The translations under genes and the position numbers were made by a program. Below are positions 1 to 60,053 of a stretch of 64,000 nt of DNA, one piece after another (position 1 is the first letter of the stretch; the number at the start of each line of letters is the position of its first letter). A model generated the notes under the pieces. It ran no database searches. It was not told the origin of the DNA and saw nothing but the letters and a program-made list of their open reading frames with translations. The DNA comes from Psilocybe cubensis (lineage: Eukaryota), in the NCBI GenBank assembly GCA_017499595.2, contig CM039004.1, forward strand, positions 3,038,001 through 3,102,000. The letters are read 5' to 3'.

Positions 1-3000
1 CCCGATTTTGTACCAACCGGCCGCTATACTGAAGAGAGAATGAAGCAGTTCGATGAAGTACACACCCCAGGATTCCTCTGGACCGAAGAACGAAAATTAT
101 TACACCATTTCATGATGCAACATCAAGAAGCTTTCGCATGGAACGATACAGAAAGAGGTCACTTCAGGGAAGACTTCTTTCCCCCAGTGAACATCCCAGT
201 TATTCCTCACAAACCTTGGGTACAGCGCAATCGACCCATTCCTCCTGGTATCTATGACGAACTCTGCAAGTTATTACAGAAGAAAATTGACGCTGGTGTC
301 CTTGAGCGATCCAATTCTCCGTACCGAGGAGCATGGTTTACAGTCACTAAAAAGGATGGCAAGTCTCTACGAATTGTACAATCCCTAGAACCATTAAACG
401 CCGTCACAATAGCACACTCTGGAGTGCCTCCCTTCACAGAACAGCTCGTAGAACAGTTTGCTGCAAGAGCATGCGGTGGAATGCTGGATTTATTTGTTGG
501 ATACGATGAACGGGCGCTTGCTGAATCCTCCCGCGATTATACCACTTTCCAGACGCCTTTTGGCGCCCTCCGACTTACCACACTTCCAATGGGATGGACC
601 AACTCAGTCCCCATCTTCCACGACGACGTTACATACATTTTACAGCCAGAAATTCCGCACACAACCATTCCTTACATCGACGACGTCCCAGTTAGAGGCC
701 CAGCTACTCGATACATATTGCCTTCTGGAGACTTTGAAACAATTCCCGAAAACCCAGGAATTAGGCGGTTTATTTGGGAGCACTTCCAGGGACTCAGTCG
801 CGTTGTCCAACGCATGAAATATTCCGGTGGAACATTCTCTGGATTCAAATCACTACTCTGTGGTCCAGAAATAACAGTGCTAGGCCATCGTTGCACTTAT
901 GAAGGCCGTCTCCCAGATCTGAGCAGAGTTTCAGCCATTGTGAACTGGGGACCATGCTCAGACTTATCCGATGTTCGATCCTTTCTTGGTACCATGGGTG
1001 TTTGTAGAATATTCATTCGGAACTTTTCCCATCGTGCTAATCCTCTCATTAAACTCACCCGCAAGAACCAACCGTTTGAATGGACTCAAGAACAAGAAAA
1101 AGCGCAGCAAGACCTTAAAGAAGCACTCCTGAAATCACCAGCCCTTCGTCCCATCGACCACTCGTCCCCAGCACCAGTAATCCTCGCAGTTGACACATCT
1201 AAAGATGCTGTTGGACACTTACTTTGTCAATGCGATTTACAGAACCCCCGCATTCGATACTATTCAAGATTTGGATCCATTACCTTAAACGAACGTGAAG
1301 CGCGATTCTCTCAACCCAAACTCGAGTTATACGGCCTCTTTCGCGCGTTTCGAGCCCTCAAGCTTTACCTCATCGGTGTACGAAATCTAGTCGTTGAGGT
1401 AGATGCGAAATACATTAAGGGAATGCTTTCCAACCCAGACCTTGCCCCTTCTGCAAGTATTAACCGATGGATTACAGCGATTTTAATGTTTCATTTCGAT
1501 CTAGTTCATGTACCAGGTACTCACCACGGACCAGACGGATTATCACGCCGAAAACCACAGCCAGGAGACGAGCCCGAGCCTGAAGACGACTTCGAAGACT
1601 GGATCGATGAAATGCAAGGTTTTATGCATATTCTGAATCCCATTACCACAGCACTCACTGTGCAAGTTCCAACACTCGTATACTCCACCTCCCTCGCGCC
1701 AGAACCGTCTCCCTCAGAAAATAACGACCATTCTACACCAAATACATCATCCGACGACTCCCAGACTTCCTATTCCATTATTCCTCGATCCGACGTTGCA
1801 CACAAGGCTGATGAACGCACATTAAAGGTCAAAACATGGCACGAAACGCTTAAGCGCCCAGACGGCATGACGGACTCGGAATATTCGACATTCCTTCGTT
1901 ACTGCACAGAATTCTTCGTGGCATCGGATAGACTATGGAGAAAGGATCACCATGGACATCATAAGCTCGTCGTACCCATAGAGCGACGTTTATTCATTAT
2001 TTCTTCAGCTCACAACGACGTTGGACACCATGGATTCTTTGCTACAAACTCACTAATAACAGAACGATACTGGTGGCCTTACATGGGCTTTGATATCGCT
2101 TGGTTCATTCGTACCTGCCACCTCTGTCAACTTCGTCGTACCCAGAACGTTCTAATCCCACCAACCGTTGCAATTCCAGCTCCACTCTTCGCCAAAGTCT
2201 TTCTAGACACAATGCACCTTCCCCCATCTGGAGGCTACAAATACATCATCCAAGCTCGATGTTCGCTTTGCCACTTCCCAGAATTCGATCCGCTTCGTCA
2301 AGAAACCGCAAAAACAGTAGGAGAATGGATTCTACGAAACTTAATCTACAGATATGGAATCCTCATCGAAATTGTCACGGATAATGGACCCCCAATCGTC
2401 AAAGCTTGTGAATACCTTTCCAAACGGTATCATATCAATTACATTCGCATCTCGAGCTACAATTCACAAGCAAATGGTCTCGTTGAACGCAGCCATTTTG
2501 ATGTTCGTCAAGCCCTCTTCAAAGCATGCGATGGGGATCAATCCAAGTGGTCTCTATACGTTCACTACGTTTTCTGGGCCGAAAGAGTTACAGTACGACG
2601 TCGGATGGGATGTTCACCTTATTTTGCACTTACAGGAACGCACCCCTTGCTCCCCTTTGATATTGTCGAAGCCAATTACCTTCTACCGCCCCCAGATTCC
2701 ATTCTATCAACCACAGACCTTATTTCTCGCCGCGCAGTCGCTCTCTCAAAACGTCGATCCGATCTTGCAAAGTTACACTCAAAAGTGTATGAAGAACGCC
2801 TCAAAGCAGCTACCCGATTCGAACGAGAACATGCCAACACAATTCGTGACTACGATTTCAAGCTCGGAGACTTAGTTCTCATTCGAAATACGGCTATCGA
2901 GAAGTCTCTCAACAGAAAAATGCGAGCTCGTTACCTCGGACCACTCATTGTCATTTCCAGAAACAAAGGAGGTGCCTACATACTTGCTGAACTCGATGGC

Positions 3001-3204
3001 TCCCTCTTCGATCGCCCTGTCGCCGCCTTTCGAGTCATTCCCTACTTTCCCAGACAGAAACTCGACTTACCACCCCTCGATGAACTCCTAGATGTGTCCC
3101 AAAAGCAACTACAACAACTTAAAGACTCAGTTTCACCTGACCCGGATGAAGACCTTGATTCTGAAGATTACAACGCAATACCACAGGACGACGACCCCCT
3201 CTAG
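1..3204 (+). CDS. pol: Ty3/Gypsy LTR-retrotransposon pol polyprotein (RT-RNase H-integrase); the 5' end lies outside the window
   Basis: The frame is open from base 1. RT motifs LDLFVGY, LPMGWTNS and YIDD; RNase H AVDTSK..ELYG..VEVDAK..DGLSR; integrase HHCC (AHNDVGH..CHLC) and D-D-E core (FLDTM, VTDNG, NGLVER); GPY/F-like YLGPLIV. The order RT-RH-INT is the Gypsy order. Confidence 0.95.
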   Translation, partial: PDFVPTGRYTEERMKQFDEVHTPGFLWTEERKLLHHFMMQHQEAFAWNDTERGHFREDFFPPVNIPVIPHKPWVQRNRPIPPGIYDELCKLLQKKIDAGVLERSNSPYRGAWFTVTKKDGKSLRIVQSLEPLNAVTIAHSGVPPFTEQLVEQFAARACGGMLDLFVGYDERALAESSRDYTTFQTPFGALRLTTLPMGWTNSVPIFHDDVTYILQPEIPHTTIPYIDDVPVRGPATRYILPSGDFETIPENPGIRRFIWEHFQGLSRVVQRMKYSGGTFSGFKSLLCGPEITVLGHRCTYEGRLPDLSRVSAIVNWGPCSDLSDVRSFLGTMGVCRIFIRNFSHRANPLIKLTRKNQPFEWTQEQEKAQQDLKEALLKSPALRPIDHSSPAPVILAVDTSKDAVGHLLCQCDLQNPRIRYYSRFGSITLNEREARFSQPKLELYGLFRAFRALKLYLIGVRNLVVEVDAKYIKGMLSNPDLAPSASINRWITAILMFHFDLVHVPGTHHGPDGLSRRKPQPGDEPEPEDDFEDWIDEMQGFMHILNPITTALTVQVPTLVYSTSLAPEPSPSENNDHSTPNTSSDDSQTSYSIIPRSDVAHKADERTLKVKTWHETLKRPDGMTDSEYSTFLRYCTEFFVASDRLWRKDHHGHHKLVVPIERRLFIISSAHNDVGHHGFFATNSLITERYWWPYMGFDIAWFIRTCHLCQLRRTQNVLIPPTVAIPAPLFAKVFLDTMHLPPSGGYKYIIQARCSLCHFPEFDPLRQETAKTVGEWILRNLIYRYGILIEIVTDNGPPIVKACEYLSKRYHINYIRISSYNSQANGLVERSHFDVRQALFKACDGDQSKWSLYVHYVFWAERVTVRRRMGCSPYFALTGTHPLLPFDIVEANYLLPPPDSILSTTDLISRRAVALSKRRSDLAKLHSKVYEERLKAATRFEREHANTIRDYDFKLGDLVLIRNTAIEKSLNRKMRARYLGPLIVISRNKGGAYILAELDGSLFDRPVAAFRVIPYFPRQKLDLPPLDELLDVSQKQLQQLKDSVSPDPDEDLDSEDYNAIPQDDDPL

Positions 3205-21759: not shown

Positions 21760-22204
21760 GAAATCATACCTCCAGTTTATACCTTTAAGGCTGTCAATTT
21801 TTTCAATCTTGTAATTTAGTGCTTTCCATAATCCAGACTTTTGTCGATGGAAAGTTGACGGAATGTGTTCAAGAATCGTATTATGCATTTGAATTATGAT
21901 GTATTTGACCTACAAAGCCCTTCATTTCCAAAGTGAAATAGAGTTTTGGAGCGAAACCGTTTTGCGTCTCTGCCGGCCGTCTCGGCAATGCTTATCTTAG
22001 AACTTCAACTTTAGAAAAGAGTCACAAATTCCTCGCAATGGCCCTGACGGGCAGGCCTGGACTCTGGGCTTTGCTAAGGCAATAATACCAATACCAATAC
22101 TATCATTGACCAGATGTTTGGTTTGACCGTTGATTTATTTTAATGGCTTATTTTCATTTCTAGCTGCTACCGACAAGACAGCTTCAGGCTCCGGGAAACT
22201 TTCC

Positions 22205-23565
22205 TAAGAGCTTGTCTGGAATTTTGCCAATTTTGGCCCTCAAATCTGCAAAACCAAACAGACCTAAACTATCCCTTGCCAATATTACTTCTCCAACACA
22301 ACTTCGCCTTGCACTGCGTTTTTTTTTTAAAAACATGCTTTATCTTAACTTCTTTTTGTAAGACTAGAGTAGTGCTGCCGCCACAGGACAGGACTGCACT
22401 GTGATTTTTCACACTCCGATATACTGCACAGCGTACCACAGTCACTGTGAAGGCTGTGCACAGTGTGCCGTAAATTTATGTTATTTTGTCAAGCCATGGT
22501 TACGAGGACATTTATGCAATTCCTGCCCTTTCTTTCTGTTCAACATTATGATTTAGTATGGCCTTAAAATGAAGGACTATTACAATTGGAAACAAAAATT
22601 CTCTTCTAGGTTACTTTTTAAGTAACCTACACAAGCTTGATAAAAGCTTAAATAGATTTTTGTCCTCAAAAATGTGCAATTTCGATAAAACTTTCTGCAA
22701 TCGGAAAGAAACATCTCAGTCTGGGTGGCAAGAATACAATATTATACTTAAAAGTGAATAAAAACATGTAGCAATGTGTCTATGCTTTCACAATGAGACT
22801 TGAGAGTGTTGCTTAGGTGTTACGAAATGGTTTTATTTATTAAGTACAAACACTGGTTTTTGTATCTAATCTTATCTGCAGAGTATATCTAATCTTATCA
22901 CACTTTCTACTAGAATCTCATAATCTTGTTTGGATCTTGTCGGATCCATTACATGATAACAGTTTTTCTTCTACACTTATGGGTTGGTCACTGTCTAACA
23001 AGGGGATATAATGTTCAGAAATAAATTCTGAATTGTAGGTAATAAAACATCAGACAATAGTACTGGACATAGCCATCTTCTGTAACAAACGCTATGTATG
23101 TGGGCAAGGAACTGCGTGATTATGTGTGACGTCATTGGTCACTTCACAGTACTTCACAGTAAACTGTGATAACTGTGAAGCGTGTCACACTGCTAAAAAT
23201 TATGCTGCACTGTCACTGCACTGCACTGTGGTGACAGCACTTGGCTAGAGCAATCTAGGCCAGTTGAGACATGTCCGAATTTTCTTTTTTGTACAATATG
23301 CTAACATTCTAAACCTGAACTTACGAGTCCAGGCATTTGGGCATATTTAATGGATTTTGTATTTTATTTTTTCTATTTAAACTGAATTTTAGAATGTACA
23401 AATATTCTTTAATACTGGAAAATGTCCTAATAATTTGCAGTTTTAGTATCAAATCCATCAGATCCAGACAATGGTTAGCCTGCAATGCTATCAAATCCAT
23501 AAAAAATGGAAAATAAAATGCCAAATTTTTGGCCTAAAATCTTTCAGAATCCGGACAAGCCTCTA
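22205..23565. mobile_element. Degenerate TIR DNA-transposon relic hosting the nested element below
   Basis: Left end TAAGAGCTTGTCTGGAATTTTG is an imperfect inverted repeat of the right end (reverse complement TAGAGGCTTGTCCGGATTCTG). A related end occurs at ~47165. No clear TSD. Confidence 0.5.
22370..23242. mobile_element. Non-autonomous hAT-like element (MITE-type)
   Basis: TIRs TAGTGCTGCCGCCACAG and CTGTGGTGACAGCACTT with ~100 bp of imperfect subterminal inverted CACAG/CTGTG repeats; 8-bp TSD GACTAGAG / GGCTAGAG (1 mismatch). Confidence 0.72.
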
Positions 23566-25185
23566 AGAGAGCTTCTTAGGGCTTATGGCTTTTTATAGCC
23601 AAGATAATATATTTTTGTAAGACTTCTCCTTAAGCACGCAACATCACTTAATATATTTGTATGTGAAACACAATGCACCAACGTGCTACTTTTTTTCTTT
23701 GTTTTTAATTGTATTGTTTGCATTGCAAAATAATCAATTTTTAATACTTATTTGTTTTTGCTTGTTTCTGTATTATTTCTGGTCAAAAAGAAAAAAAAAG
23801 TAAAATTATGTATATGTATAATTTATATACTAAAGATTATATTTCAGCATCATAACCAAATTTGTGATCCATATATTTAATATATAATATTTTCCAAACA
23901 AATTCTGCGGTTGACTGCAATTTGTGCCACTCTACCAAAAGAGGTCGATTCTATAAAAAATAAATATTTATTAATAGGACATATAAAAGTATAATAAATT
24001 TCGTACCATTGTTTCCCGTTCAAACTGGTTCATACAAATATGGATAGTGGTCATGTGCTTGTAAATATCCTCGGAATCCTTGATATTGAAAAACTCCAAA
24101 AATTTCTTCCAGTCTGTTTTGTCGATGAAACGGGATACAAGTGCAACATATACCACATACTTGCTGCTTAGAATTGGTTCTAGCAAGTAATATGCTGCCA
24201 CAAAACTAATAGAGCTAACAGAAACAACAAATACGTCGTTTGTTGGCCAGTAAATGTCGTTGGTAATTGGTTCAATACAATAACCTTCAATCAGCTCTGA
24301 ATTAGCATCCTAAAATAGCAAAAATAAATATAAAAATATTAGTATATAGTGTAAAATGACTTACTAAAGCATATATAGCATATTCTTTATAACCAAATTC
24401 TACAAATTCCTGGACAATTGTGCCGTATCCAGGAAATCTATCAGATCCATAAGGAAATACAGAAAATATTGCTTCTTTAGCATGACATGTAATACATACG
24501 CTAAAATTGCGTAAAGTATAATGCCATGGGTCAATAAGACATTTATGCTGATATCGCCTCCATTTGATCTGGTTGTTCCAGACACCTAAAGTGTCAAGCT
24601 CAGTCCAACGTTGGTTGATTGGAACATATTTCATAATGAAGGCAGTTTCGATTTCGGCATTGATGTCTTTTAATAGATAGCCAAAAGATTCTAAATGAAT
24701 TAGATTTAAGTATAATATGTTTAGATATAAATAATATAATTGCTTACTTGATATTATATCAAATGGCGGAAGAAGTTCCGAATATTGATTCAAATTGAGA
24801 AAGTCCATAATGACAAGAAGGACTAATAAACGACAAACACGATTTGAATGTGATGCAATAAAACTTTGTTATTGCAATTTACGCTTTAAATAGGACAAGC
24901 TCAAGAGTAGATTACTAATATAATATAACAAAATGGCGCCATTTTCTCACTGTTTAATAAAATGGTGTCATTTTTTCACCATTTAATAAAATGACTAATT
25001 TTCAATGCATTTGTTGCTATACAATTAGTGCAATTAGTAATATGCCGATGTCATTTGAATACTTCTATTAATATATCACTATAGTATTGATACTATTATC
25101 AAATCTATCATCATCAATATCACTGTTGCTATGTTACTAATACTGTTTTAGTTTTCTTTAATTGCTTCCATTACTATAGTCCTGT

Positions 25186-25282
25186 ACTATCAACGCCACT
25201 GCCATTGCATTAATACAATATACTGTGTTATCAACGCCACTATCATTGTATTAATACAATATGTGCTATCAACGCCACTGTC
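25186..25282. repeat. Tandem ~40-bp repeat, 3 copies
   Basis: TATCAACGCCACTNNCATTGYATTAATACAATAT occurs three times. Confidence 0.8.
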
Positions 25283-25672
25283 ATTGTATTAATACAATAT
25301 ATTGCTTTAGGTTACATCACACTATTGCCAAATTAGTATACATTATGCAGGGTTACGGAAATTAAAATGCTAGACACCGGCTAGATAGGTATGTTGGCCG
25401 CTAGACCACAAAAAAACAATTTAAATGCAGTTAGATTCTAAATGATGATGAAACAACTTTTGTATACTTGTTTCAAAAACATGCTAATTCCGTAGAAGTT
25501 GGACCGTATATTTGATAGATTTGATAAAAATCAATCATATAAATAGAACGTACATATAATAGAATTGACTGCTAACATTAGTTATATATATATATATACT
25601 TGTTCTATTCCATTTGAGTTAGTGCATAACCAATATCAAGAGAAACTTACTAATTTAGTATTATACATTTTT

Positions 25673-25830
25673 ATACGTAAAGCCAGTGCTATATTGAATG
25701 AGTAAGAAATACACGTAAGGACACGTAAGTCTGTGCTGTATTGAATGAATAGTAAGTACACGTAAAGCTAGGGCTGTATCAAATGATTAATAAATATACG
25801 TAAAGCTGGAACTGTATTGAATGAGTAATA
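25673..25830. repeat. Degenerate ~41-bp tandem repeat, about 4 copies
   Basis: Recurring TACGTAAAGC...TGTATTGAATGAGTAA units. Confidence 0.65.
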
Positions 25831-27100
25831 TATATGTATTCAATTAGATAAAGCAAAATTTGAGAGCTTGTTTTACGACAAGGACTTTCACTGCAGGGGT
25901 GGGGTGGGCTGACAGGTCTAGTTCGATCTGAAGAATATTGATCTAATAATAGTTAAAACTAAGTTACATATGAGAATAATAGAAATTCGAATAGAAATCG
26001 TTAAGATTTAGGGTAGAGGGTTACGGGCATCAGGGTATAGGGCATAGCAGCTGTATCCTGTATAAATATACCCTTTTAGCAGCCTAATCATTACCGATAT
26101 CTTCTGCTACTCGTTTCTATCATACAATACGTACTACAGTATGAACACTTCTTCATCCATTCCAAATGCAAATGAAACTCATCAGGACGCTGGATCCTTT
26201 CCTGTTAGTTAAACATCTATTTTATGAATTATCTATACTAACAATTTTTGTAGATCGGTGTAAAAATTTTTTATATTGACGGTCAAGGCAGATGTATCTA
26301 TGGGATTGTTAAATGTCACCAAGCCATGCACGTAAGTTTATAACATTACTTGTCATTTACTATACCTGATTGGGGCTCCAGTGTACACTTCTTCTGCACA
26401 TAAAACCTCTCGACTCAGATGGAAAAGAACAGAACATGACATGGATTGTACCGTAAGTAAAATATATTTATATTTAAACATCTTTTGTTAAATTAATATT
26501 CTGTTTAAATAAAGTTCCTATGCAGTCATTTGTGTATAGTCTGTATATACTCGTTATATATCCAGTACCAGAGGTTCATATGTATCCATGATGAAAGAAA
26601 ATGTTAATCAAATATCAACGAGTATACAATATTAGAACACGAATCTGATGAATAGGGTACGCGTTGGCGAGTCAGTATGCTCACGTGACAGGTTTATTAC
26701 ATAGTCAGATAAAGGTCGGCTATTCGATCTCCTTTGTCCGATTAGATTACTAAATACTGATAAGTCACTGATGTAGCCACAAAATATAAATGCATGTATG
26801 TTTCTACTGTAGAGCACCAGTGAACAAACAATACTTTACCTGTATATCGATTACTCATGCACCGATACCCCTATGCTCTGTACCAGAACCATGCTACAGT
26901 CACTTTGCATTATACTGGTATTGACTTATGTCGGAAATATGAACCTTGGTTAAACCTTCATTCGATTACCAACAGCAATGATAACTACCCGCAATGGACC
27001 CAACCGACCTGCGTGAAATATGGTACCACTTTATTATTAATAATTCCATGACCTGACCGATATTCATCGCAATCTAATATCTAATTACATATATCATACC

Positions 27101-48071: not shown

Positions 48072-48171
48072 NNNNNNNNNNNNNNNNNNNNNNNNNNNNN
48101 NNNNNNNNNNNNNNNNNNNNNNNNNNNNNNNNNNNNNNNNNNNNNNNNNNNNNNNNNNNNNNNNNNNNNNN
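48072..48171. other. Assembly gap (100 N)
   Basis: Run of exactly 100 N, typical of a scaffold join of unknown size. Confidence 0.99.
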
Positions 48172-48229
48172 GGCTGTTGGGGGATCCCAACAACCAGCCC
48201 TTTCGTCTTTATAGACTCTTCAGTGGCTA
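48172..48229 (-). ncRNA. Hammerhead ribozyme, partial (cleavage site falls in the N gap)
   Basis: Identical core and stem II; the sequence stops at ...CAGCC in stem III, 3 nt before the predicted cleavage site. Confidence 0.75.
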
Positions 48230-48826
48230 TTCTTAGAAGGAATGTTCTAGACATCCGATGACAGCGCGTGAAGTGATGCTGCGCAGCTGTCATGTATCTT
48301 ACCGACTATCACAAATCTGTCAATGTTTATTGTCAAGTTAGACAGGTCTCTGATGAACAGAGTGTCACGGGTCGATGTGGCACATGGTAACCTGTCAAAA
48401 GTGGATCCAACACTTTTGTTCTTTGACATCGTGGGTTATTGACTGTGATGTGAATCACATGGATATAGATTACTCTGGTTACGTGGCTCCGAGTAACCGC
48501 GACATGGGAATATTCACATGTCTAGAGTATAAATAGCTTACCTGGGTCCTTACCTAACAATCAAACAATAGAATGATTGATTGTTGTGAATCTTAATTGG
48601 ACAGTTCATGATCCGGTCCATCAAAAATGTTTCCACGGTACTAAGGAACTTTTCCCGAAGTACTAAGTAACTTTTCCCATGTACTAAATTAGATCCGGCC
48701 CTTCACAATCACATGCCGTTCGGAAGTTCACACGCCTACCTTACTTCCTACTAAGGTTAGACTTAGTTAGCTTAGGGTTGGGGTTAGGTTAGGGTTTAGG
48801 GTTTAGGGTTTAGGGTTTAGGTTTAG
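48172..48826 (-). repeat. Pseudo-LTR copy 1 (3' end of the full-length element, cut by the gap), including its telomeric tract
   Basis: Direct repeat of 52589-53217 and 53293-53950. Confidence 0.9.
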
Positions 48827-48938
48827 CTATTTAATCCAAAGTGTTGCTTGTAAGTAGATGTTTGTTACTTTATAGCAAGGAATACTTACGGTTAGGGTTT
48901 TTTTCTAATGCTTTACGCCTTACGCGCTAGTATTCTTT

Positions 48939-51900
48939 TCATCGGTTGTAAGATTTGGATATTCTGCCGAATTCTGGATGTTCCCTCTCTTGTGAGATTG
49001 AACGTCTATGAAGTATTATCTCGTTATCACTTTCGATACTTATCTGTTCAGCAGCTTCAACTAGAGCAGAATGATAAGTTTCATTAACGTTTTGAGTTTC
49101 GGGAACAACACCACCTTTTTCAGCGATGTTTTCATCCAGTTTACGAAAGACTGTTTTCTTCCACACATTTGCAAGGTCGAAAAGATTAGTATTGCGCTTT
49201 CGCGATACTATCCAACGACTTCCGAGTAGTCCTATCTTCCTCAAATCCGGTACGAACTCAGTTTCTCCGTCCACGAGGATCTGTGTGAACAGCTCCGGGC
49301 GAACATCATCGAGGTCGTGAACGTAATTTGGATCTGGTTTGATAAGGGGTCTGGACGAGTCTGCACTATACAGACCTTTCTCGGCATGTTCATACCATGC
49401 CGACCAGTACTCGGTAACAGTCTTTCCAAGTTCAGCAGCTGAAAACCAATTCCATACCTGATCAAATCTGGTTTTAAGTACAAGAATGGATTCGTCGTGC
49501 TCTGCGACTCGTAAAGCGAATCGCTTTTCCCAACGTTCTTGTATATTCTTCTTACACCAAGACATGACTAGGTTTTCGGGATAACCGCGCATCAAATAGA
49601 GAGCGTTAAGGTCTCTAATTGCTCCGATGTAGATTTCCTTGGTACTACATAGCACGGCTAACCTGGATAACTCTCCAATGTAGACGCCACGTTTGACGTC
49701 CAAAGGATGATGTGATACCCATGGAACTCGTTCTCGGTTGTTTCCTGTCTTGACAAATGGCTTCCAATGAAGTTTTCCAGACTCCTTGAATATGAAAGCA
49801 TCGAGAAATTGACATCCCGACGAGGAAACAGCCCATTCGATAACACAACCATCGAACTTTATTGTTTCTTTAATAAGATTAAGTGCAAGTGCTTCGGACT
49901 CGGCGTAAACAATTGCGAAACAATCGTCGATGTACCTTCCATAGAAGGCCACGTTTGGGTGGTCTAAGATTTTTGACTTTATTTCAAAATGGGCTCCAAA
50001 GAGGTTAGCAAGGTCCGGAGAATCCGCGACGCCCATTGCGAGGCCATTTTTTTGTCTAAAATATCTAGACCCATGTTGTGTTATCAATTGCGTATTGCCA
50101 ATCTCGATAGCACGTTTAAAGATGCCCAATTTAACCAAGTTATTCTCTAACGAATTTGGATTAATATGGGCTAATGCAGTGTTCTCTTCCGAAGCGTTGA
50201 GTAACCATTCCTCGTACATATTACAAACGATTTCGATGCACAAGTCCAACGGAATATTGGGATAGAAAGCAACTACATCCCCGGTGACAAAATACCATTG
50301 TCGTTTGGGGTCTATACGCAATTGGCTTAATCTCGTAAAGAGATCCTTCGTTCCGTGAATGATTGAAGGAGTCGATTTAATAATCGGCTTAAGCTCTTTT
50401 GATACAAACTTGGCTGCAGGATTAAATACTACAGAGTGACACGGAATTATGGGCCTAAATCCAGTAGGTTTCTTGTGGATTTTAGGTATACCATGAAATT
50501 GAGGATACTTGAACGATGATCCGTCTTCCGGTACATTCGATAGAAAGAATCGAGACAACCCAAGTTCAAATAGAAACAGATGTTCATCTTCGACGGTACG
50601 TGCGAGAGTTTGCATCTGAATCATTTTGCTCTTCATAACTTCTTGCGCAACTTCGAATTCTAACTCTTCGTAGTTGCGTTCATCTTCAAGAAGATTGAGC
50701 TCATTCCTTAATATCCAGTCGCGTTCAGACACCGCGAGGCCAAGATTCTTATCTGTCATCGTAATAACATAGTTGTTATCGAAAAGAAACTTTTGGATCT
50801 TGTCCCTTTTAGGAGAGAACGCGTGCTTTCGCATCTCTTTAAGGGCTTCTTCCGGGATACTTGCGATCGTTTTAATAACGTACCGACGTCCCATTGAAAG
50901 GCCAAGTTCCATAAATTGCGGTAACATTGGAGGTTTCTCTTTCTTTTTAGAGCTTACTCCATAGTCTGGATCGAAAGGTTTATTCATGCCTTCTTTAAAC
51001 AAAAAATAGATACGCCATCTTATTCTTCGTTGAAAATCATTCCATGCTTGCATGATCAGATTTTTAGAAGGCAGTGTAAAAAACATATAATTGAGTCCAA
51101 GAGATAAATCATTTGCTACATCAACAGGGACCGAAACACCAGGACTACAGTGTACACTAGATCTATACTGGCCAGCCAATAAGAATGAAATCGGGGTATT
51201 GAGGTGTACAAAAGAAACTGCGTCTGTTTTAGTCATGGTGAGTATATCGTCAGGAATAGAGTTGGGGAAGGCGGGTCTCACCGACGTAAATGATGCTACA
51301 GTAGACCGCGCGTCTAGGCTCTTGCCTTTCCCTTTCCCTTTGGATCGTTGTTCTTGACGGGAGCTCTCCCCTTCCCTTTCTTCTTGTTGTCGACCTTGTT
51401 GGAAGCCTTGGTTTGAGGCTTCCTCTGCGAAGGCGTCGACGACGACTTGGGTTTCGAAGGGCCAGCTTTCCTGGCCTGAGGTTGAGGAGCCTTGGACGAA
51501 TTCTGGCCAGACAAAGTCTGGGTAATTAGAGTAATAATTAGTGTCCAGAATTATGGGTGAAGGGTTACGAAAACTTGCCTTCTTGCCCACAGATCCAAGG
51601 TTGAGCTTTTTGAGACGTGCATTCAAGCCCTTATCAATAAGGGATTGAATCGATGGACCTGGTTTGGTCGCATCGGCCATCTCGACATCGGCTGTTGCCG
51701 CAGTCGTCCGCTTTTTCTCAATCTTAATTGCCAAGGCGCGGTGGCGCATGTTGACAATCTGTTTGATATGAGAAAAGATCGCCGGCAGTATAGTTTGCAG
51801 CGCACTGCATTCGGCTTTCTTTTGCGGAGACACTACCCACTCTGCTATACGTCGAACTCCCTTGTTGTCTGTAGAGAAAACAGGGAGCTTGTAGCTGGAT

Positions 51901-52472
51901 TTGCGATCATCGTAAGTTGCCTTAACGATGAGGGCAGCAGCTTCGTAGCAAGAGTTGAGCGCGCATTTATCATCCCAAAAAGCCAGCTCGTCCTTTTTCG
52001 CCTGAACGGCGCCGTCGTTAATTGCCTTTTGGAAGGCATCACGAGCGGAAGAGAACGTAGTGGAGACTCGAAGAGCCTCCGCTGACCCGGCATCCGCGAA
52101 TTCCTTCGTAAGTTGGAACTCGGGTGCCTTCACCTTAAGGCGATTGGGCGTGTTGCCTGCGCTAACGGCAGATTCAAGGCGCTCGAGGCTAGCCTTGACT
52201 GTTTCCCTCTTGTCGCACCACGATGCGAGGTTGAGGAGAAACTCCCTGAGGGCAGCACGATAGTCAAAAAAGACGCAGTCTATGACTTGGTCAACGGAGC
52301 GGCACTCAGCTATTTTTTTGATGACCACAGTGGCCAGCTCGTCGATAAGAGCGTTATGGCGGCCTGCTTCATCGTTGACGCCGAAGACAGTGTTGTTGAC
52401 GACGGCCTGGGTGAGTGCGTCCAGGGTAGGGGACATGGCACGAGAGAATGCAGCAGAGTATTGGGATGACAT
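48939..52472 (-). CDS. Coprina-type PLE ORF1-reverse transcriptase, 1177 aa (intron-retained form)
   Basis: TDKNLG, FHGIPKIHKKPTGFRPII, GDVVAFYPNI, QKNGLAMG, YGRYIDDCF and CQFLD motifs; helical Ala-rich N-terminal region; no endonuclease motif. Confidence 0.93.
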   Translation of the reverse strand: MSSQYSAAFSRAMSPTLDALTQAVVNNTVFGVNDEAGRHNALIDELATVVIKKIAECRSVDQVIDCVFFDYRAALREFLLNLASWCDKRETVKASLERLESAVSAGNTPNRLKVKAPEFQLTKEFADAGSAEALRVSTTFSSARDAFQKAINDGAVQAKKDELAFWDDKCALNSCYEAAALIVKATYDDRKSSYKLPVFSTDNKGVRRIAEWVVSPQKKAECSALQTILPAIFSHIKQIVNMRHRALAIKIEKKRTTAATADVEMADATKPGPSIQSLIDKGLNARLKKLNLGSVGKKASFRNPSPIILDTNYYSNYPDFVWPEFVQGSSTSGQESWPFETQVVVDAFAEEASNQGFQQGRQQEEREGESSRQEQRSKGKGKGKSLDARSTVASFTSVRPAFPNSIPDDILTMTKTDAVSFVHLNTPISFLLAGQYRSSVHCSPGVSVPVDVANDLSLGLNYMFFTLPSKNLIMQAWNDFQRRIRWRIYFLFKEGMNKPFDPDYGVSSKKKEKPPMLPQFMELGLSMGRRYVIKTIASIPEEALKEMRKHAFSPKRDKIQKFLFDNNYVITMTDKNLGLAVSERDWILRNELNLLEDERNYEELEFEVAQEVMKSKMIQMQTLARTVEDEHLFLFELGLSRFFLSNVPEDGSSFKYPQFHGIPKIHKKPTGFRPIIPCHSVVFNPAAKFVSKELKPIIKSTPSIIHGTKDLFTRLSQLRIDPKRQWYFVTGDVVAFYPNIPLDLCIEIVCNMYEEWLLNASEENTALAHINPNSLENNLVKLGIFKRAIEIGNTQLITQHGSRYFRQKNGLAMGVADSPDLANLFGAHFEIKSKILDHPNVAFYGRYIDDCFAIVYAESEALALNLIKETIKFDGCVIEWAVSSSGCQFLDAFIFKESGKLHWKPFVKTGNNRERVPWVSHHPLDVKRGVYIGELSRLAVLCSTKEIYIGAIRDLNALYLMRGYPENLVMSWCKKNIQERWEKRFALRVAEHDESILVLKTRFDQVWNWFSAAELGKTVTEYWSAWYEHAEKGLYSADSSRPLIKPDPNYVHDLDDVRPELFTQILVDGETEFVPDLRKIGLLGSRWIVSRKRNTNLFDLANVWKKTVFRKLDENIAEKGGVVPETQNVNETYHSALVEAAEQISIESDNEIILHRRSISQEREHPEFGRISKSYNR
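51314..52472 (-). CDS. Predicted spliced ORF1 (Gag-like) protein, 365 aa: exons 52472-51579 and 51517-51314
   Basis: 61-nt intron AAG|GCAAGT...CTAAT...CCAG| (51578-51518); splicing joins ...GKK to TLSGQNSSK...KGKGKARA*, a Lys-rich tail in another frame. Confidence 0.65.
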
Positions 52473-52501
52473 GGTAACTGATGGGTGATAGCAAAGTCGT
52501 T

Positions 52502-53208
52502 GGGTTTAGGGGGGGAGCGAGCACCGAGCGAAGCGAGGTGCGAGCGACTAGTTTAAACTGTGAGTTTGAAATAGAAAGAAGGCCAGAGGGCTGTTGGGGG
52601 ATCCCAACAACCAGCCCTTTCGTCTTTATAGACTCTTCAGTGGCTATTCTTAGAAGGAATGTTCTAGACATCCGATGACAGCGCGTGAAGTGATGCTGCG
52701 CAGCTGTCATGTATCTTACCGACTATCACAAATCTGTCAATGTTTATTGTCAAGTTAGACAGGTCTCTGATGAACAGAGTGTCACGGGTCGATGTGGCAC
52801 ATGGTAACCTGTCAAAAGTGGATCCAACACTTTTGTTCTTTGACATCGTGGGTTATTGACTGTGATGTGAATCACATGGATATAGATTACTCTGGTTACG
52901 TGGCTCCGAGTAACCGCGACATGGGAATATTCACATGTCTAGAGTATAAATAGCTTACCTGGGTCCTTACCTAACAATCAAACAATAGAATGATTGATTG
53001 TTGTGAATCTTAATTGGACAGTTCATGATCCGGTCCATCAAAAATGTTTCCACGGTACTAAGGAACTTTTCCCGAAGTACTAAGTAACTTTTCCCATGTA
53101 CTAAATTAGATCCGGCCCTTCACAATCACATGCCGTTCGGAAGTTCACACGCCTACCTTACTTCCTACTAAGGTTAGACTTAGTTAGCTTAGGGTTGGGG
53201 TTAGGTTA
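52502..53208 (-). repeat. Pseudo-LTR copy 2 (5' of the full-length ORF)
   Basis: ~705-bp unit bounded by GGGTTTAGGG motifs. Confidence 0.9.
52581..52646 (-). ncRNA. Type I hammerhead ribozyme
   Basis: Minus strand UAGCCA-CUGAAGA-GUCU(AUAA)AGAC-GAAA-GGGCUG...CAGCCC-UC^UGGCC: complete core with stems I, II and III and a CUC cleavage triplet (C17 = 52586). Confidence 0.88.
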
Positions 53209-53952
53209 GGGTTTAGGGGGGGAGCGAGCACCGAGCGAAGCGAGGTGCGAGCGACTAGTTTAAACTGGGAGTTAAATGGAAAGTAGCCAGAGGGCTGTTG
53301 GGGGATCCCAACAACCAGCCCTTTCGTCTTTATAGACTCTTCAGTGGCTATTCTTAGAAGGAATGTTCTAGACATCCGATGACAGCGCGTGAAGTGATGC
53401 TGCGCAGCTGTCATGTATCTTACCGACTATCACAAATCTGTCAATGTTTATTGTCAAGTTAGACAGGTCTCTGATGAACAGAGTGTCACGGGTCGATGTG
53501 GCACATGGTAACCTGTCAAAAGTGGATCCAACACTTTTGTTCTTTGACATCGTGGGTTATTGACTGTGATGTGAATCACATGGATATAGATTACTCTGGT
53601 TACGTGGCTCCGAGTAACCGCGACATGGGAATATTCACATGTCTAGAGTATAAATAACTTACCTGGGTCCTTACCTAACAATCAAACAATAGAATGATTG
53701 ATTGTTGTGAATCTTAATTGGACAGTTCATGATCCGGTCCATCAAAAATGTTTCCACGGTACTAAGGAACTTTTCCCGAAGTACTAAGTAACTTTTCCCA
53801 TGTACTAAATTAGATCCGGCCCTTCACAATCACATGCCGTTCGGAAGTTCACACGCCTACCTTACTTCCTACTAAGGTTAGACTTAGTTAGCTTAGGGTT
53901 GGGGTTAGGTTAGGGTTTAGGGTTTAGGGTTTAGGGTTTAGGTTTAGGTTTA
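53209..53952 (-). repeat. Pseudo-LTR copy 3 (3' end of the truncated copy), including its telomeric tract
   Basis: Tandem direct repeat of copy 2; differs mainly over ~30 nt next to the ribozyme. Confidence 0.9.
53284..53350 (-). ncRNA. Type I hammerhead ribozyme
   Basis: Same core with a perfect 6-bp stem I, UAGCCA/UGGCUA (C17 = 53290). Confidence 0.9.
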
Positions 53953-54065
53953 GCTATTCAATCCAATGTGTTGCTTGTAAGTAGATGTTTGTTACTTTAT
54001 AGCAAGGAATACTTACGGTTAGGGTTTTTTTCTAATGCTTTACGCCTTAAGCGCTAGTATTCTTT

Positions 54066-55389
54066 TCATCGGTTGTAAGATTTGGATATTCTGCCAAATT
54101 CTGGATGTTCCCTCTCTTGTGAGATTGAACGTCTATGAAGTATTATCTCGTTATCACTTTCGATACTTATCTGCTCAGCAGCTTCAACTAAAGCAGAATG
54201 ATAAGTTTCATTAACGTTTTGAGTTTCGGGAACAACACCACCTTTTTCAGCGATGTCTTCATCCAGTTTACGAAAGACTGTTTTCTTCCACACATTTGCA
54301 AGGTCGAAAAGATTAGTATTGCGTTTTCGCGATACTATCCAACGACTTCCGAGTAGTCCTATCTTCCTCAAATCCGGTACGAACTCAGTTTCTCCGTCCA
54401 CGAGGATCTGTGTGAACAGCTCCGGGCGAACATCATCGAGGTCGTGAACGTAATTTGGATCTGGTTTGATAAGGGGTCTGGACGAGTCTGCACTATACAA
54501 ACCTTTCTCGGCATGTTCATACCATGCCGACCAGTACTCGGTAACAGTTTTTCCAAGTTCAGCAGCTGAAAACCAATTCCATACCTGATCAAATCTGGTT
54601 TTAAGTACAAGAATGGATTCGTCGTGCTCTGCGACTCGTAAAGCGAATCGCTTTTCCCAACGTTCTTGTATATTCTTCTTACACCAAGATATGACTAGGT
54701 TTTCGGGATAACCGCGCATCAAATAGAGAGCGTTAAGGTCTCTAATTGCTCCGATGTAGATTTCCTTGGTACTACATAGCACGGCTAACCTGGATAACTC
54801 TCCAATGTAGACGCCACGTTTGACGTCCAAAGGATGATGTGATACCCATGGAACTCGTTCTCGGTTGTTTCCTGTCTTGACAAAAGGCTTCCAATGAAGT
54901 TTTCCAGACTCCTTGAATATGAAAGCATCGAGAAATTGACATCCCGACGAGGAAACAGCCCATTCGATAACACAACCATCGAACTTTATTGTTTCTTTAA
55001 TAAGATTAAGTGCAAGTGCTTCGGACTCGGCGTAAACAATTGCGAAACAATCGTCGATGTACCTTCCATAGAAGGCCACGTTTGGGTGGTCTAAGATTTT
55101 TGACTTTATTTCAAAATGGGCTCCAAAGAGGTTAGCAAGGTCCGGAGAATCCGCGACGCCCATTGCGAGGCCATTTTTTTGTCTAAAATATCTAGACCCA
55201 TGTTGTGTTATCAATTGCGTATTGCCAATCTCGATAGCACGTTTAAAGATGCCCAATTTAACCAAGTTATTCTCTAACGAATTTGGATTAATATGGGCTA
55301 ATGCAGTGTTTTCTTCCGAAGCGTTGAGTAACCATTCCTCGTACATACTACAAACGATTTCGATGCACAAGTCCAACGGAATATTGGGA
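54066..55389 (-). pseudogene. 5'-truncated second copy of the PLE RT
   Basis: Nearly identical to 48939-50262 with a few substitutions (CNMYE/CSMYE, VMSW/VISW, DENI/DEDI); breaks inside RT motif A directly at the telomeric tract. Confidence 0.92.
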
Positions 55390-55524
55390 TTAGGGTTTAG
55401 GGTTTAGGGTTTAGGGTTTAGGGTTTAGGGTTTAGGGTTTAGGGTTTAGGGTTTAGGGTTTAGGGTTTAGGGTTTAGGGTTTAGGGTTTAGGGTTTAGGG
55501 TTTAGGGTTTAGGGTTTAGGGTTT
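55390..55524 (+). repeat. Telomeric repeat tract (TTTAGGG) x ~19, interstitial in this assembly
   Basis: TTAGGG, then 18 perfect TTTAGGG units, then TTT. Confidence 0.97.
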
Positions 55525-55676: not shown

Positions 55677-58213
55677 TTATTTAATAGCACGGGTTTGTAA
55701 GGCTTTTGTCGAAAGCCTTTGTATCTTCTCCACGTATGCCTCCAACCCCTTATCCCACTCCTTTAGCTCTCCCTTCTTCGTCACAGTATACAGAACGCCC
55801 TTTTGTCTCTCCCCATCATCATCGTCGTCATCTTCATCGTCATCCCCGCCCTCGATGACTTGCTTCAGGAACCATACATCGTGACTGACTACCACCAACG
55901 CCCCTTCGAATTCACAGAGAGACTCCACGAGCGACTCGACAGTGCCCATATCAAGGTGGTTTGTGATTTCATCCAGCAGCAGCACATGCGGACGATGAAA
56001 CGTCACCAGTGCTAGAGCAACGCGGTTCCGCTGGCCACCACTCAACGTGCGGATTGGACGCGTAACAGGATCACCGCTGATCCCACATGACCCGAAATGC
56101 GAGCGCGCTTCACCCTCTGTGATGACGATATCCGGGAACGACTTCGACAGGTGTTGAAGGGCTGACACTGAGAGATCGAGTTGGTCGACGGTGTGCTGCG
56201 AAAAGTAGCCAATGCGGAGTCGGTGGTGTTTCTTCACTTCACCAAGGGTGGGTTTAAGTTCCCCAGCAAGGAGGTTCATGAGGGTGGATTTGCCACAACC
56301 GTTGGGACCTAGAAGCCCTATCCTGGCTTGAGGGCCGACGTCAAGTGACACATTGTTAATGACCATAGGAGAGGATGGCTTAGGATCATAGCGAAATGAA
56401 GCCTCGGAAAGTTGAAGAAACGAGCTCCCAGGAAAATTGAATGGCTCCGGCGGAGGCAGCGTGATAGGCGCAGTCTTCACCGCCTGTTCAACGACGATTT
56501 CATCATGGAAGCCGTGATAACTTTTCTTATATCTTTTACCATCTTCCAGACGTTCCATACCCATCCTTTCAAGTTTCTGCACAGAAACGTTTATAAAAAT
56601 TGTTCAAGAACCATCATGGAAGCACTCACCTTTTTACGAGATGCGACCTGTCCGTATCGTTTATCGTCACCTGTCGATTTAGCCTGCTGGACATTTTTTT
56701 GGATGCTGTCCATTATTTGTTTTCGTCTCTTCATTTCCAGCTAGAACGAAATTTGTCAGACAAAAAATCAGTTCGCCAGTGAAAAGCATTGTACCTCTTT
56801 CAGGCGTGTTTTGCGTTTCCTTTGCTCTTCTGTGTTTCTTTCCCAATCGTCGTAGTTTCCAGGATGATAAGTCAGTTTCTTGTCCCTAAAAATTATCGTC
56901 TCGTCCGTAACAGCGTCAAGGAAGCTCCGGTCATGAGAGACGACGACAACTGTCTGACCCTCCGCATCGTTCGTCAAATATGAACGTAGCCACACAATGG
57001 CGGGGAGATCAAGATGGTTGGCTGATAGTCACCAATTAGGATAACGGCATATACAAAAAATTACTTTGAGACGCACTTGGTTCGTCGAGAAGCAATATAT
57101 CAGGCTTGATGAATAACGCCTTTCCAAGCATAACTCGCATCCGCCAACCACCGCTTAGCCCACCAATCTTCCTTCCTTCTTTGGAGAGGTCTTCATCTTT
57201 AAATCCCAGTCCGCGAAGGATTGACTTTGCTCTTGCTTCGTCCGCTTCAAGATCCAGGACTTCATATGCACCGAACACCTCTGTCATTATATCATGGACC
57301 ATTTGTGTGGTGACATATGTCTGTGGATCTTGGGCCTGAAGAGTGGCAAGGTCGTTCTCTGCGACTAACAAAGCCTGGCGTGCAGTGTGCCCGCGTTGTC
57401 CAGATCTCTTCGTGGCAATTTTTTGAGCCTTGTCGAGCGCTATTTCAGCGCGAGAGACGAGGAGCTTGTGGATAATCGTATTCAAAGCTGCATCGGAGTT
57501 CGCCTTTGTGGTAAACCCCTGAAGTGCTGGCAAGGCATCAGGACTCGATAACACCTAGAACCCGTGTTGAAAACTACCTTGTGCCTCTCGAATTATTCGC
57601 GTGCGATCAACGTCTGCCTCGAGGATCTCTTCCAAAATTGTCCGACCAGCAGTGAAATCTTCCAACTGAGCAATGTGTAGAATCCGTACATTCTGGGGCA
57701 ATCCAACAAGCACGTTGTTTCCAAGCACAGACAACAACACTGGCCGAAGGAACAACCCGAGAAGGTCAGAATCGTTCAGAAGACTGCCTATTTGAACTCA
57801 CCTGACTTGCCCACTCCGTTCTGGCCAACCATGCCATATCTCACACCCGGCTTCAACCGCAGATGGGCATCAACGAGGAGTTCTTTGTTGTTAACACTGA
57901 CGTTGACCCCCTTAATGTCGATATCGATATCGCTGGCGTCGAATGTTTCTCGATGGAAGCGGCTTTGTTGGGAATAGGCAACGATCTCTACAGCTTGGGA
58001 TGATCCATGACCGGGATCTACATTGTCAGAAGTTGTTGAACCAGTCGATTCAACTTGCTTTTTCTTCGCCTTGCTGATCTTAGATTTCGCGGGAGAGGCG
58101 GTCTGGTTAAGAAGTTAGAGATTATGTTGTTATTCTTCGTTTGTGGGAGATTCAGATGACAATACCTTGATTGGGTCGTTGATTTGCAAAGACGATAGTC
58201 TGAGTGAATCCAT
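55677..58213 (-). CDS. ABC-F family ATPase (GCN20/ARB1-like; two NBDs, no TM domains), multi-exon
   Basis: Walker A motifs GQNGVGKS and GPNGCGKS; signatures LSGGWRMR and LSGGQRNR; LLLDEP/TNHLD; VVSHDR. Confidence 0.93.
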
Positions 58214-58725: not shown

Positions 58726-60053
58726 CTACTGCTCGCTCACGAAGATGGCAGCCATGCCCATGCCCGAACCAATGCACATGCTGGTCACGAACAGCTTTTT
58801 GCCAGTCTGCTTGGCGATGTTGAGACCAGTGGCGACCTGGCGGGCACCAGTGCATCCCAAAGGATGGCCAATGGCAATAGCTCCTCCGTTGATGTTGACC
58901 TTCTCGAAGGGAATGTTAAGATGCTGGACGCTGAAAACAGCCTGGCTGGCGAAAGCCTCGTTGATCTCGAAGAAGTCGACATCGGCGAGGGTGATGCCGG
59001 CAATCTCAAGCACGCGGGGGATAGCGTAGGCGGGACCAACACCCATGATGCGTGGGGGAACACCAACGGTGGCGGCAGTGACGAATTTGCCAACGATGGG
59101 AAGACCTAGGCGCTTGGCCACGGAACGGCGGGCAAGCAGAACAGCAGCGGCACCATCCGACACCTGGGATGCGTTTCCGGCGTGAGTCGAACCGTCTTTC
59201 GAGAAAGCGGGTTTGAGCTTGGAAAGGCTTTCAACAGTGACACCGTCTCGGATGCCATCATCCTGGTCCACGACGATTTCCGAAACCTTCTCCGTCTTGG
59301 GGTCGATGAATTTGGCAGTAATGGGAACGATTTCATCCTTGAACTTGCCAGCCTTGTTGGCAGCGGCGGCTTTCTGGAACGACTTCGCGGCGAATTCGTC
59401 CTGAACTCTGCGGGTGATGCCATAGTCCTTGGCAACGTTCTCAGAGGTGATACCCATGGGCAAAAGGCAGTCTTCGGCGTCCTTGTTCTCAAGAACTTCC
59501 TCTGAGACATCAGGGGCAGCACCAGCTCCGTACCCATTTGTCATGGACTCGACACCAGCACCTAGATGTATGTCAGAACATGGCAGGGGACCCGTGTGTA
59601 GATCTCTCACGTACCGATACCGATGTCAATCTGTCCTGCGAGAATTTGGTTGGCAATCTGGTTGATTGCGGTCAAACCAGACGAGCACTGCCTGTTCACG
59701 GTGTTAATTGAGGTCTCGACGGGGATTCCAGCGTGGAGCGCGGCCATGCGAGCAGCAGAAGCTCCACCGCCTGGTGGGAGAACATTGCCGACAGCGATAT
59801 CCTGAATGAGTTTGGGGTCGAGGTTGACCTTTGAGTAGGCAGCGCGGAGAACATGAGAAAGGATCAGTTCTGGTTTGGTGTCCTTGAATCCTCCTTTCTT
59901 GCCCTACAACTCGCAGTCAGCGCCGTTTATACTGCATTTCCCACCGAAAACGCGCACCTTAGTAATGGCTGACCGCACAGCGGAAACAATGACAATGTCG
60001 TTGTCATTCTTTTGGAGGAGAGCGGCCTTGTTGGAGGAGGTTTGGGTAGACAT
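58726..60053 (-). CDS. 3-ketoacyl-CoA thiolase (acetyl-CoA acyltransferase), 3 exons
   Basis: NRQCSSG active-site Cys, GNASQVSDGAAA, EINEAFA, GGAIAIGHPLGCTG and SMCIGSGMG. Confidence 0.96.

Follow-up and report, generated by a model that had tools for sequence, protein, structure and literature searches.

A reverse transcriptase (RT) element of Psilocybe cubensis probably carries, inside its single open reading frame (ORF), a conserved spliceosomal intron of 3n+1 length, the removal of which would give a 365-aa protein and the retention of which would give a fusion with the RT. The element lies in a 64,000-nt stretch (assembly GCA_017499595.2, contig CM039004.1, positions 3,038,001 to 3,102,000), which is called the window here and to whose numbering all coordinates refer. 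By its anatomy, the best fit for it is an endonuclease-deficient Penelope-like element of the Coprina type. Telomerase has its closest relatives in the Penelope-like elements. We also lean, by a little, towards a fuller reading, in which a stretch of 49-61 nt serves at once as intron and as main-frame code, its splice signals are seen as residues of the protein, about 65 dual-coding codons come next, and the whole forms an ancient spliceosomal switch of the Agaricomycetes.

Candidate Intron and Reading Frames

The long ORF is located on the minus strand (52472..48939) and encodes a protein of 1177 aa (P0001). Its first exon, from the start codon to K298 (51579..52472, minus), encodes an N-terminal domain that is all-helical according to translation and model and is common to the short and the long product; the motif ADVEMADATKPGPSIQSL is conserved at the end of this domain in the alignment. 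The codon of K298 is AAG at 51581..51579 on the minus strand, and a phase-0 donor follows directly (AAG/GCAAGT, where the slash marks the splice boundary). The candidate intron, recognized from the sequence and from homologous candidates, occupies 51518..51578 (minus), is 61 nt long with 38% G+C, ends in the acceptor CCCAG/, and contains CTAAT twice as a branch-like motif, at distances of 20 and 8 nt from its 3' end. The main-frame translation of this segment is ASFRNPSPIILDTNYYSNYP, and the main frame is open across the 61 nt and further downstream.

Removal of the intron would lead into the +1 frame, which runs for 67 codons from 51517 (51517..51317) and then reaches a TAG at 51316..51314 (protein P0108), giving a short product of 298 + 67 = 365 aa. 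The tail encoded in this frame is rich in Lys, Ser, and Pro, with 28% K+R and 3% D+E. The overlap (51314..51517, minus) is therefore potentially dual-coding, the +1 frame specifying the basic tail and the main frame a fusion linker, which is acidic and Gln-rich and poorly conserved. The main frame continues into the RT part (48939..51313, minus; aa 387-1177 plus stop), as supported by translation, alignment, and model. A preliminary description of this locus had placed a 61-nt intron with an AAG/GCAAGT donor, CTAAT motifs, and a CCAG/ acceptor at codon 298, between a 365-aa and a 1177-aa product, and had remarked on a natural-looking basic tail after its removal; all of these features were confirmed, on the minus strand. 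A second in-frame acceptor, GGCCAG/, is positioned at 51502/51503 (minus), 15 nt past the first one. It would define a 76-nt intron, and its use would yield a tail variant differing by few residues.

Conservation of the Candidate Intron in Relatives

Relatives of the element were collected by a scan of metagenome contigs, which gave 32 loci, 24 of them covering the region and 8 without it. The proteins of the 24 covering loci are 24-64% identical to the window protein and belong to at least three families. Several of the comparisons below used 18 sequences of about nine lineages, and pairwise counts reuse sequences. In all 24 covering loci a GT...AG candidate was found at the same site, where it adjoins the conserved ...LKK... 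with which the N-terminal domain ends, and it is followed in all 24 by a Lys-rich +1 frame ending in KGKGK-like motifs. The candidate introns measure 49 nt in eight loci, 52 nt in one, 55 nt in three, 58 nt in five, and 61 nt in seven loci plus the window. Their donors are mostly GTGAGT, GTAAGT, or GTAAGA, and the weaker GTGCGC, GTACGA, and GTGCGT occur too. A CTRAY motif stands 5-45 nt upstream of the acceptor in 12 of the 18 sequences, the other six having CTAAG or CTCAY. Taken together, the donor, branch motif, YAG, position, and spacing expected of a functional intron were found in 24/24 loci and in the window.

The donor itself differs. At the DNA level, GC was seen in the window only and GT in all 24 related loci. 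In the protein alignment, Val (GTN) occupies the donor position in all 27 non-cubensis full-length homologues, and at the protein level Ala is found there in P. cubensis and P. cyanescens, which fits a GC donor in this lineage. The preliminary description had suggested that the weak GC donor sets the ratio of the two products; as the GC was seen, at the DNA level, in the window only, such a role could at most be a lineage-specific refinement. Its expectation that the intron would be conserved held for the position and the dual open frames (24/24 loci). The loss of the donor and acceptor or of the Lys-rich frame in homologues, which it had named as a sign against itself, was not seen, both being kept in 24/24 loci.

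Several main-frame residues of conserved appearance coincide with the splice signals, Val-Ser corresponding to GTGAGT and Ser-Asn to the CTAAT branch motif; a main-frame Val-Trp coincides with the codons at the start of the tail. Across families of 24-64% identity, the stop of the tail and its KGKGK end are kept, and the K+R content of the tail is 28-34% across the compared sequences. In family B, loci L016-L021 possess tandem acceptors (TAG/CAG/), which would give introns of 49 or 52 nt and tail variants differing by few residues. In most of the family B loci L016-L022, the tail stop is centred in the perfect palindrome GCGGCC-TA-GGCCGC.

Selection on Both Reading Frames

Substitutions were tallied per main-frame codon position in 40-codon sliding windows over the entire ORF; the counts share related sequences and are to be taken as strong patterns, not as formal probabilities. 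Main-frame position 1, which is the wobble position of the +1 frame, exceeded position 3 in 4 of the 54 sliding windows of family B, all of them within columns 280-380 of an alignment that has the acceptor at column 294 and the tail stop at 367. In family A, the same was observed in 3 of 57 sliding windows, in the overlap, plus one data-poor N-terminal window. Furthermore, the tails of P. cubensis and of a P. cyanescens gene model share 72% identity (E 3e-16), the N-terminal region reaching 61%. The switch in periodicity and the identity of the tail argue for purifying selection on the +1 product from the acceptor to the tail stop, with the main frame there apparently merely kept open, as an otherwise unconstrained linker.

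Inside the intron the pattern is that of the main frame. The substitution values at main-frame positions 1/2/3 are 0.122/0.075/0.371 in family B and 0.192/0.105/0.263 in family A, with the peak at position 3 in both. No main-frame stop occurs inside the intron in any of the 18 sequences (0/18), and stops are present there in 16/18 sequences in the +1 frame and in 15/18 in the +2 frame. The main-frame protein is continuous in all 28 aligned full-length homologues, and no conserved Met was found at the start of their RT part. The periodicity of the intron, the lack of main-frame stops, and the lack of a conserved RT start together argue that translation of unspliced RNA passes through the intron and on into the RT, as had been predicted from the open frame of the retained intron. 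Both the spliced and the unspliced readings thus look selected. The earlier contrast between a spliced short protein and an unspliced RT fusion gains comparative support in this way, from the 24/24 sites, the selection on the +1 frame, and the main-frame periodicity of the intron.

Gene Models and Evidence For and Against Splicing

Short proteins of the kind proposed are present among splice-aware gene models of other Agaricomycetes, with a length of 330-400 aa and a basic tail at the end. They were found in Hypholoma, Trametes, Lenzites, Mycena, Mucidula, Plicaturopsis, and Gymnopilus, as well as in Psilocybe cf. subviscida and P. cyanescens. The Hypholoma model has the junction KK/TSSG, which is the junction proposed for the window. 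One basic-tailed fragment carries the database label histone H1. A query made of the P0058 junction plus tail returned, as matches spanning the whole region, splice-aware NCBI gene models in every case. No N-terminal domain joined directly to the tail was found among 19 short proteins from ENA, JGI, and Logan (0/19), and contigs from one sequencing data set are unspliced DNA over the junction. Three other data sets, presumed to be RNA, contributed no coverage of the junction and no splice joints, a result without bearing on expression.

Several points weigh against a conserved splice switch. Splicing is here inferred from sequence evolution alone, and the patterns of substitution are no formal probabilities because the sequences are related (about nine lineages among the 18). 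The 3n+1 length of the introns was a search condition and so is no independent finding, and the GC donor of the window belongs to a minority class. A spliced mRNA would bear about 2.4 kb of RT sequence as its 3' untranslated region. The gene models of P. cubensis differ at the junction: P0058 reads LGY/TSSG, P0059 joins elsewhere, and P0003 and P0004 instead omit an in-frame 288 nt. In addition, 22 GY...AG pairs in the window ORF would give stop-free joins into the tail frame, and the +1 open stretch, at 78 codons, is surpassed by alternative-frame stretches of 108 and 94 codons elsewhere in the ORF. Because the stretch is T-poor, the +2 frame too is without a stop in the overlap in 14/18 sequences, the window included.

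Some of the discrepancies among the gene models may have simple origins. The alternative donors in some P. cubensis models possibly reflect a predictor that disallows GC donors. The 288-nt "intron" of the NCBI models P0003 and P0004 (aa 398-493; 50994..51281, minus; starting with GTGAGA) was rejected because the stretch is rich in residues invariant across the 28 homologues, and its omission is probably a mis-annotation.

Proposed Mechanism and Alternative Explanations

In the proposed mechanism, removal of the intron would place the ribosome in the +1 frame, which would end after 67 codons and yield the 365-aa protein, made of the all-helical domain and a basic, disordered tail resembling that of histone H1, and presumed to be a nucleic-acid-binding "ORF1". 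When the intron is kept, 20 extra main-frame codons would be read, followed by the unconstrained linker over the tail stretch and by the telomerase-like RT. The choice at the splice site would decide how much structural protein is made relative to RT. The unspliced RNA would be both the RT messenger and the template for transposition, which is our proposed reason why genomic copies keep the intron. We infer partial splicing, nucleic-acid binding by the tail, and tuning of the ratio by donor strength alike.

In one sequence alone, the feature is within chance expectation. As alternative-frame stretches of equal or greater length exist in the same ORF, the openness of the +1 frame was rejected as evidence by itself, and the feature acquires significance only via comparison with relatives. 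The same long stretches, together with the disagreement of the gene models at the junction, are what could recommend the simplest alternative, namely that the tail is a chance frame in a purine-rich, T-poor linker, that the 1177-aa protein is the only product, and that the short models are artefacts. We find this hardly credible, given that the overlap is precisely where the periodicity turns to the +1 frame, that families of 24-64% identity have all kept the tail stop and the terminal KGKGK, and that conservation is higher in the tail than in the domain preceding it.

Two other alternatives accept both products and assign the switch to the ribosome. Without any splicing, the short product could arise by a +1 ribosomal frameshift just past the "intron" segment; this would fit the selection on the +1 frame and the fact that no spliced RNA was seen, but it leaves the donor, branch-like motif, and YAG at fixed spacing in 24/24 loci to be accounted for. 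The +1 frame has stops within the segment in 16/18 sequences, in locus L008 the TAG is the acceptor itself and leaves no room before the conserved NTSG start of the tail, and no recognizable +1 shift motif was seen by inspection, all of which makes such a shift very improbable. Conversely, splicing might be constitutive, with the RT made by a -1 ribosomal frameshift near the end of the Lys-rich tail and the 1177-codon ORF untranslated as such. In-frame heptamers of the form XXXYYYZ (AAAGGGA, GGGAAAG) do occur where the KGKGK end of the tail is encoded, in 11/18 sequences (the window and 10 others), yet a heptamer that places GGG in the A site shifts poorly. Neither the main-frame periodicity of the intron nor its stop-free main frame in 18/18 sequences is required by such a mechanism, and 7/18 sequences have no in-frame heptamer at all. 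We therefore consider a -1 shift unlikely, even though an ORF1 set apart by a frameshift with a pseudoknot has been recorded among Penelope-like elements (Craig et al., 2021; PMC8557442). For the splice switch, the 7/18 sequences lacking a slippery heptamer make it plausible that splicing acts in place of ribosomal frameshifting, as the preliminary description had supposed.

The Short Protein

The AlphaFold model of exon 1, built with a 25-sequence alignment, has a mean predicted local distance difference test (pLDDT) score of 84 and consists of long helices with one hairpin. No fold in the PDB matched it at E <= 0.001 (best E 0.24), and a search of the ESM Atlas with exon 1 gave no usable match. 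The tail sequence of the window contains no Cys or His and hence no zinc knuckle. No fold or motif of a Gag capsid or nucleocapsid, or of L1 ORF1p, was recognized in the short protein by these comparisons. The basic, disordered tail alone suggests, by analogy, that the protein may bind nucleic acid. The label "Gag-like", which the preliminary description had used, was not borne out, because there is no match to a solved fold and the tail is without Cys or His; it could be kept as a functional analogy only, its fold being unsupported.

Comparison With Known Systems

Splicing is known to control the production of a structural-protein RNA in Drosophila copia, and barley BARE reportedly obtains its structural-protein RNA by alternative splicing in the manner of the Ty1/copia type. 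In the Arabidopsis Ty1/copia element EVD, a single ORF gives the structural protein from spliced RNA, and the unspliced RNA serves for the polyprotein and as template (Oberlin et al., 2017, PMC5580714). The Ty1/copia elements are long terminal repeat (LTR) elements in which splicing takes out the protease region and goes together with early termination, whereas the 49-61-nt intron here would merely shift the frame, into an overlapping one that is under selection. The comparison is one of functional analogy and not of membership; the genomic architecture and the selection on both readings would fit it. A likeness also exists to -1 frameshifting between gag and pol in retroviruses and many LTR elements, in which frames overlap and the downstream enzyme is made as the scarcer fusion. 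In contrast, the switch proposed here is spliceosomal and acts on RNA, and it is the fusion that would result by default, from unspliced RNA, instead of the short protein.

Coprina has been described with one ORF and Athena with two (PMC13159263). The element resembles Coprina of fungi and Athena of rotifers in its TERT-like RT with a DKN motif, the absence of an endonuclease, the tandem partial copies, the hammerhead-like motifs (sub-threshold here), and the reverse-complement telomere-like repeats near the 3' end (PMC8557442, PMC4209133). It differs from them in that one ORF would hide a second product by means of a frame-switching intron, and in that no chromosome end is visible next to the copy. 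In Coprina-1_Alen of Ascochyta lentis, ORF1 combines a coil domain with disordered regions, and the second ORF has a nuclear localization signal, DKN, RT, and thumb (PMC13159263). The list of parts is the same as in the window; the ORFs are separate in the DNA of Coprina-1_Alen and fused here, where splicing would part them.

Penelope-like elements keep spliceosomal introns through retrotransposition (PMC8557442, PMC4209133), which is unusual for retroelements. The introns of Penelope and Chlamys are placed in the 5' untranslated region and are described as being of unknown significance (PMC8557442); the intron described here lies within the ORF, and a function can be proposed for it. A Gag-only RNA made by splicing in Ty1/copia and the retention of introns in Penelope-like elements are thus already known. 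No description of a frame-switching coding intron followed by a selected overlapping frame in Penelope-like elements was found in the literature searched, and the paper that defined Coprina (Gladyshev and Arkhipova, 2007) may mention an intron.

If the proposal is true, it would give the first functional reason for the keeping of introns by Penelope-like elements through retrotransposition, and "single-ORF" Coprina elements would become two-product elements. The intron in the ORF would split the transcript into a messenger for the structural protein and a messenger and template for the RT, as a spliceosomal counterpart of gag-pol frameshifting. The overlap would also offer a clean example of dual coding that is conserved in a mobile element of eukaryotes. 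The inconsistent "hypothetical protein" models in mushroom genomes, including the one labelled histone H1, would be accounted for as well.

Anatomy of the Element and Its Surroundings

The nearest database proteins of the 1177-aa protein are from Psilocybe cubensis and 98-99% identical to it. The DKN motif, so named in PMC13159263, is encoded at 50753..50745 (minus), and T573-D574-K575-N576 is invariant in the 28 aligned proteins; the YIDD (49934..49923, minus) is likewise invariant in the alignment. The model of the RT part (aa 387-1177) has a pLDDT of 61.5, with the last ~90 residues modelled as disordered. In a Foldseek search of the PDB, its best matches were the TERT proteins of Candida, human, and Tetrahymena (E 5.5e-7 to 3e-6; top matches 6zdq_A, E 5.5e-7, and 7qxb_A, E 7.8e-7), followed by group II intron RTs, with low template modelling scores of about 0.28. 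Pfam gave no family in the whole protein or in the RT part. A search of the PDB by single sequence found nothing, and a profile search of the PDB returned only the Drt3a RT, at a marginal E of 0.084. A GIY-YIG endonuclease domain was not found by Pfam in the whole protein or the RT part, a no-match that is not proof of absence.

A tandem 5'-truncated copy, detected by blastn and tblastn self-search, is located upstream of the element (53293..55390, minus). It comprises RT aa 738-1177 plus the 3' region, shares 99% identity with 48172..50263, and forms with the full copy the pseudo-LTR arrangement that Penelope-like elements typically show. The 3' untranslated region of the full copy (48172..48938, minus) is ended by an assembly gap, the N run at 48072..48171. 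A hammerhead-ribozyme-like motif at 52581..52665 (minus) scores 25.3 bits (E 0.99) against the Rfam family RAGATH-1-hammerhead, and a second copy at the 3' end of the upstream unit (53285..53369, minus) scores 29.1 bits (E 0.14), both under the Rfam gathering score of 56.3. The two motifs are found at equivalent places in the units and have the core boxes CTGAAGAG / GTCT-ATAA-AGAC / GAAAG, a short helix II, and a long helix III. The motif at 52581..52665 directly precedes the short 5' leader of the full copy; if self-cleavage takes place there, the leader remaining in front of the ATG would measure ~115 nt.

A CCCTAAA-like run, that is, a reverse-complement telomere-like one, was read from the sequence at 53893..53953 (minus) in the 3' region of the element, and shorter runs are present at ~53189..53222 and ~52501..52515 (minus) in the 3' and junction regions. 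The unit is 7 nt long, the reverse complement of a TTTAGGG-like unit. Since the unit has 7 nt, a search for TTAGGG x3 with at most one mismatch found no instance within the window.

The 5' flank contains a fragment of an ABC-transporter ATPase and a thiolase gene (55680..56603 and 58729..59625, minus), and the 3' flank is the 100-N assembly gap at 48072..48171, where the join may be a scaffolding artefact. With these genes on one side and the gap on the other, the element is not visibly at a chromosome end. Elsewhere in the window, positions 1..3204 (plus) hold an open-ended frame of 1067 aa with RNase H and integrase zinc-binding domains, and represents the pol region of a Ty3/gypsy-like LTR element. 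The G+C content of positions 22001..26000 is 0.31-0.34, compared with about 0.45 elsewhere in the window.

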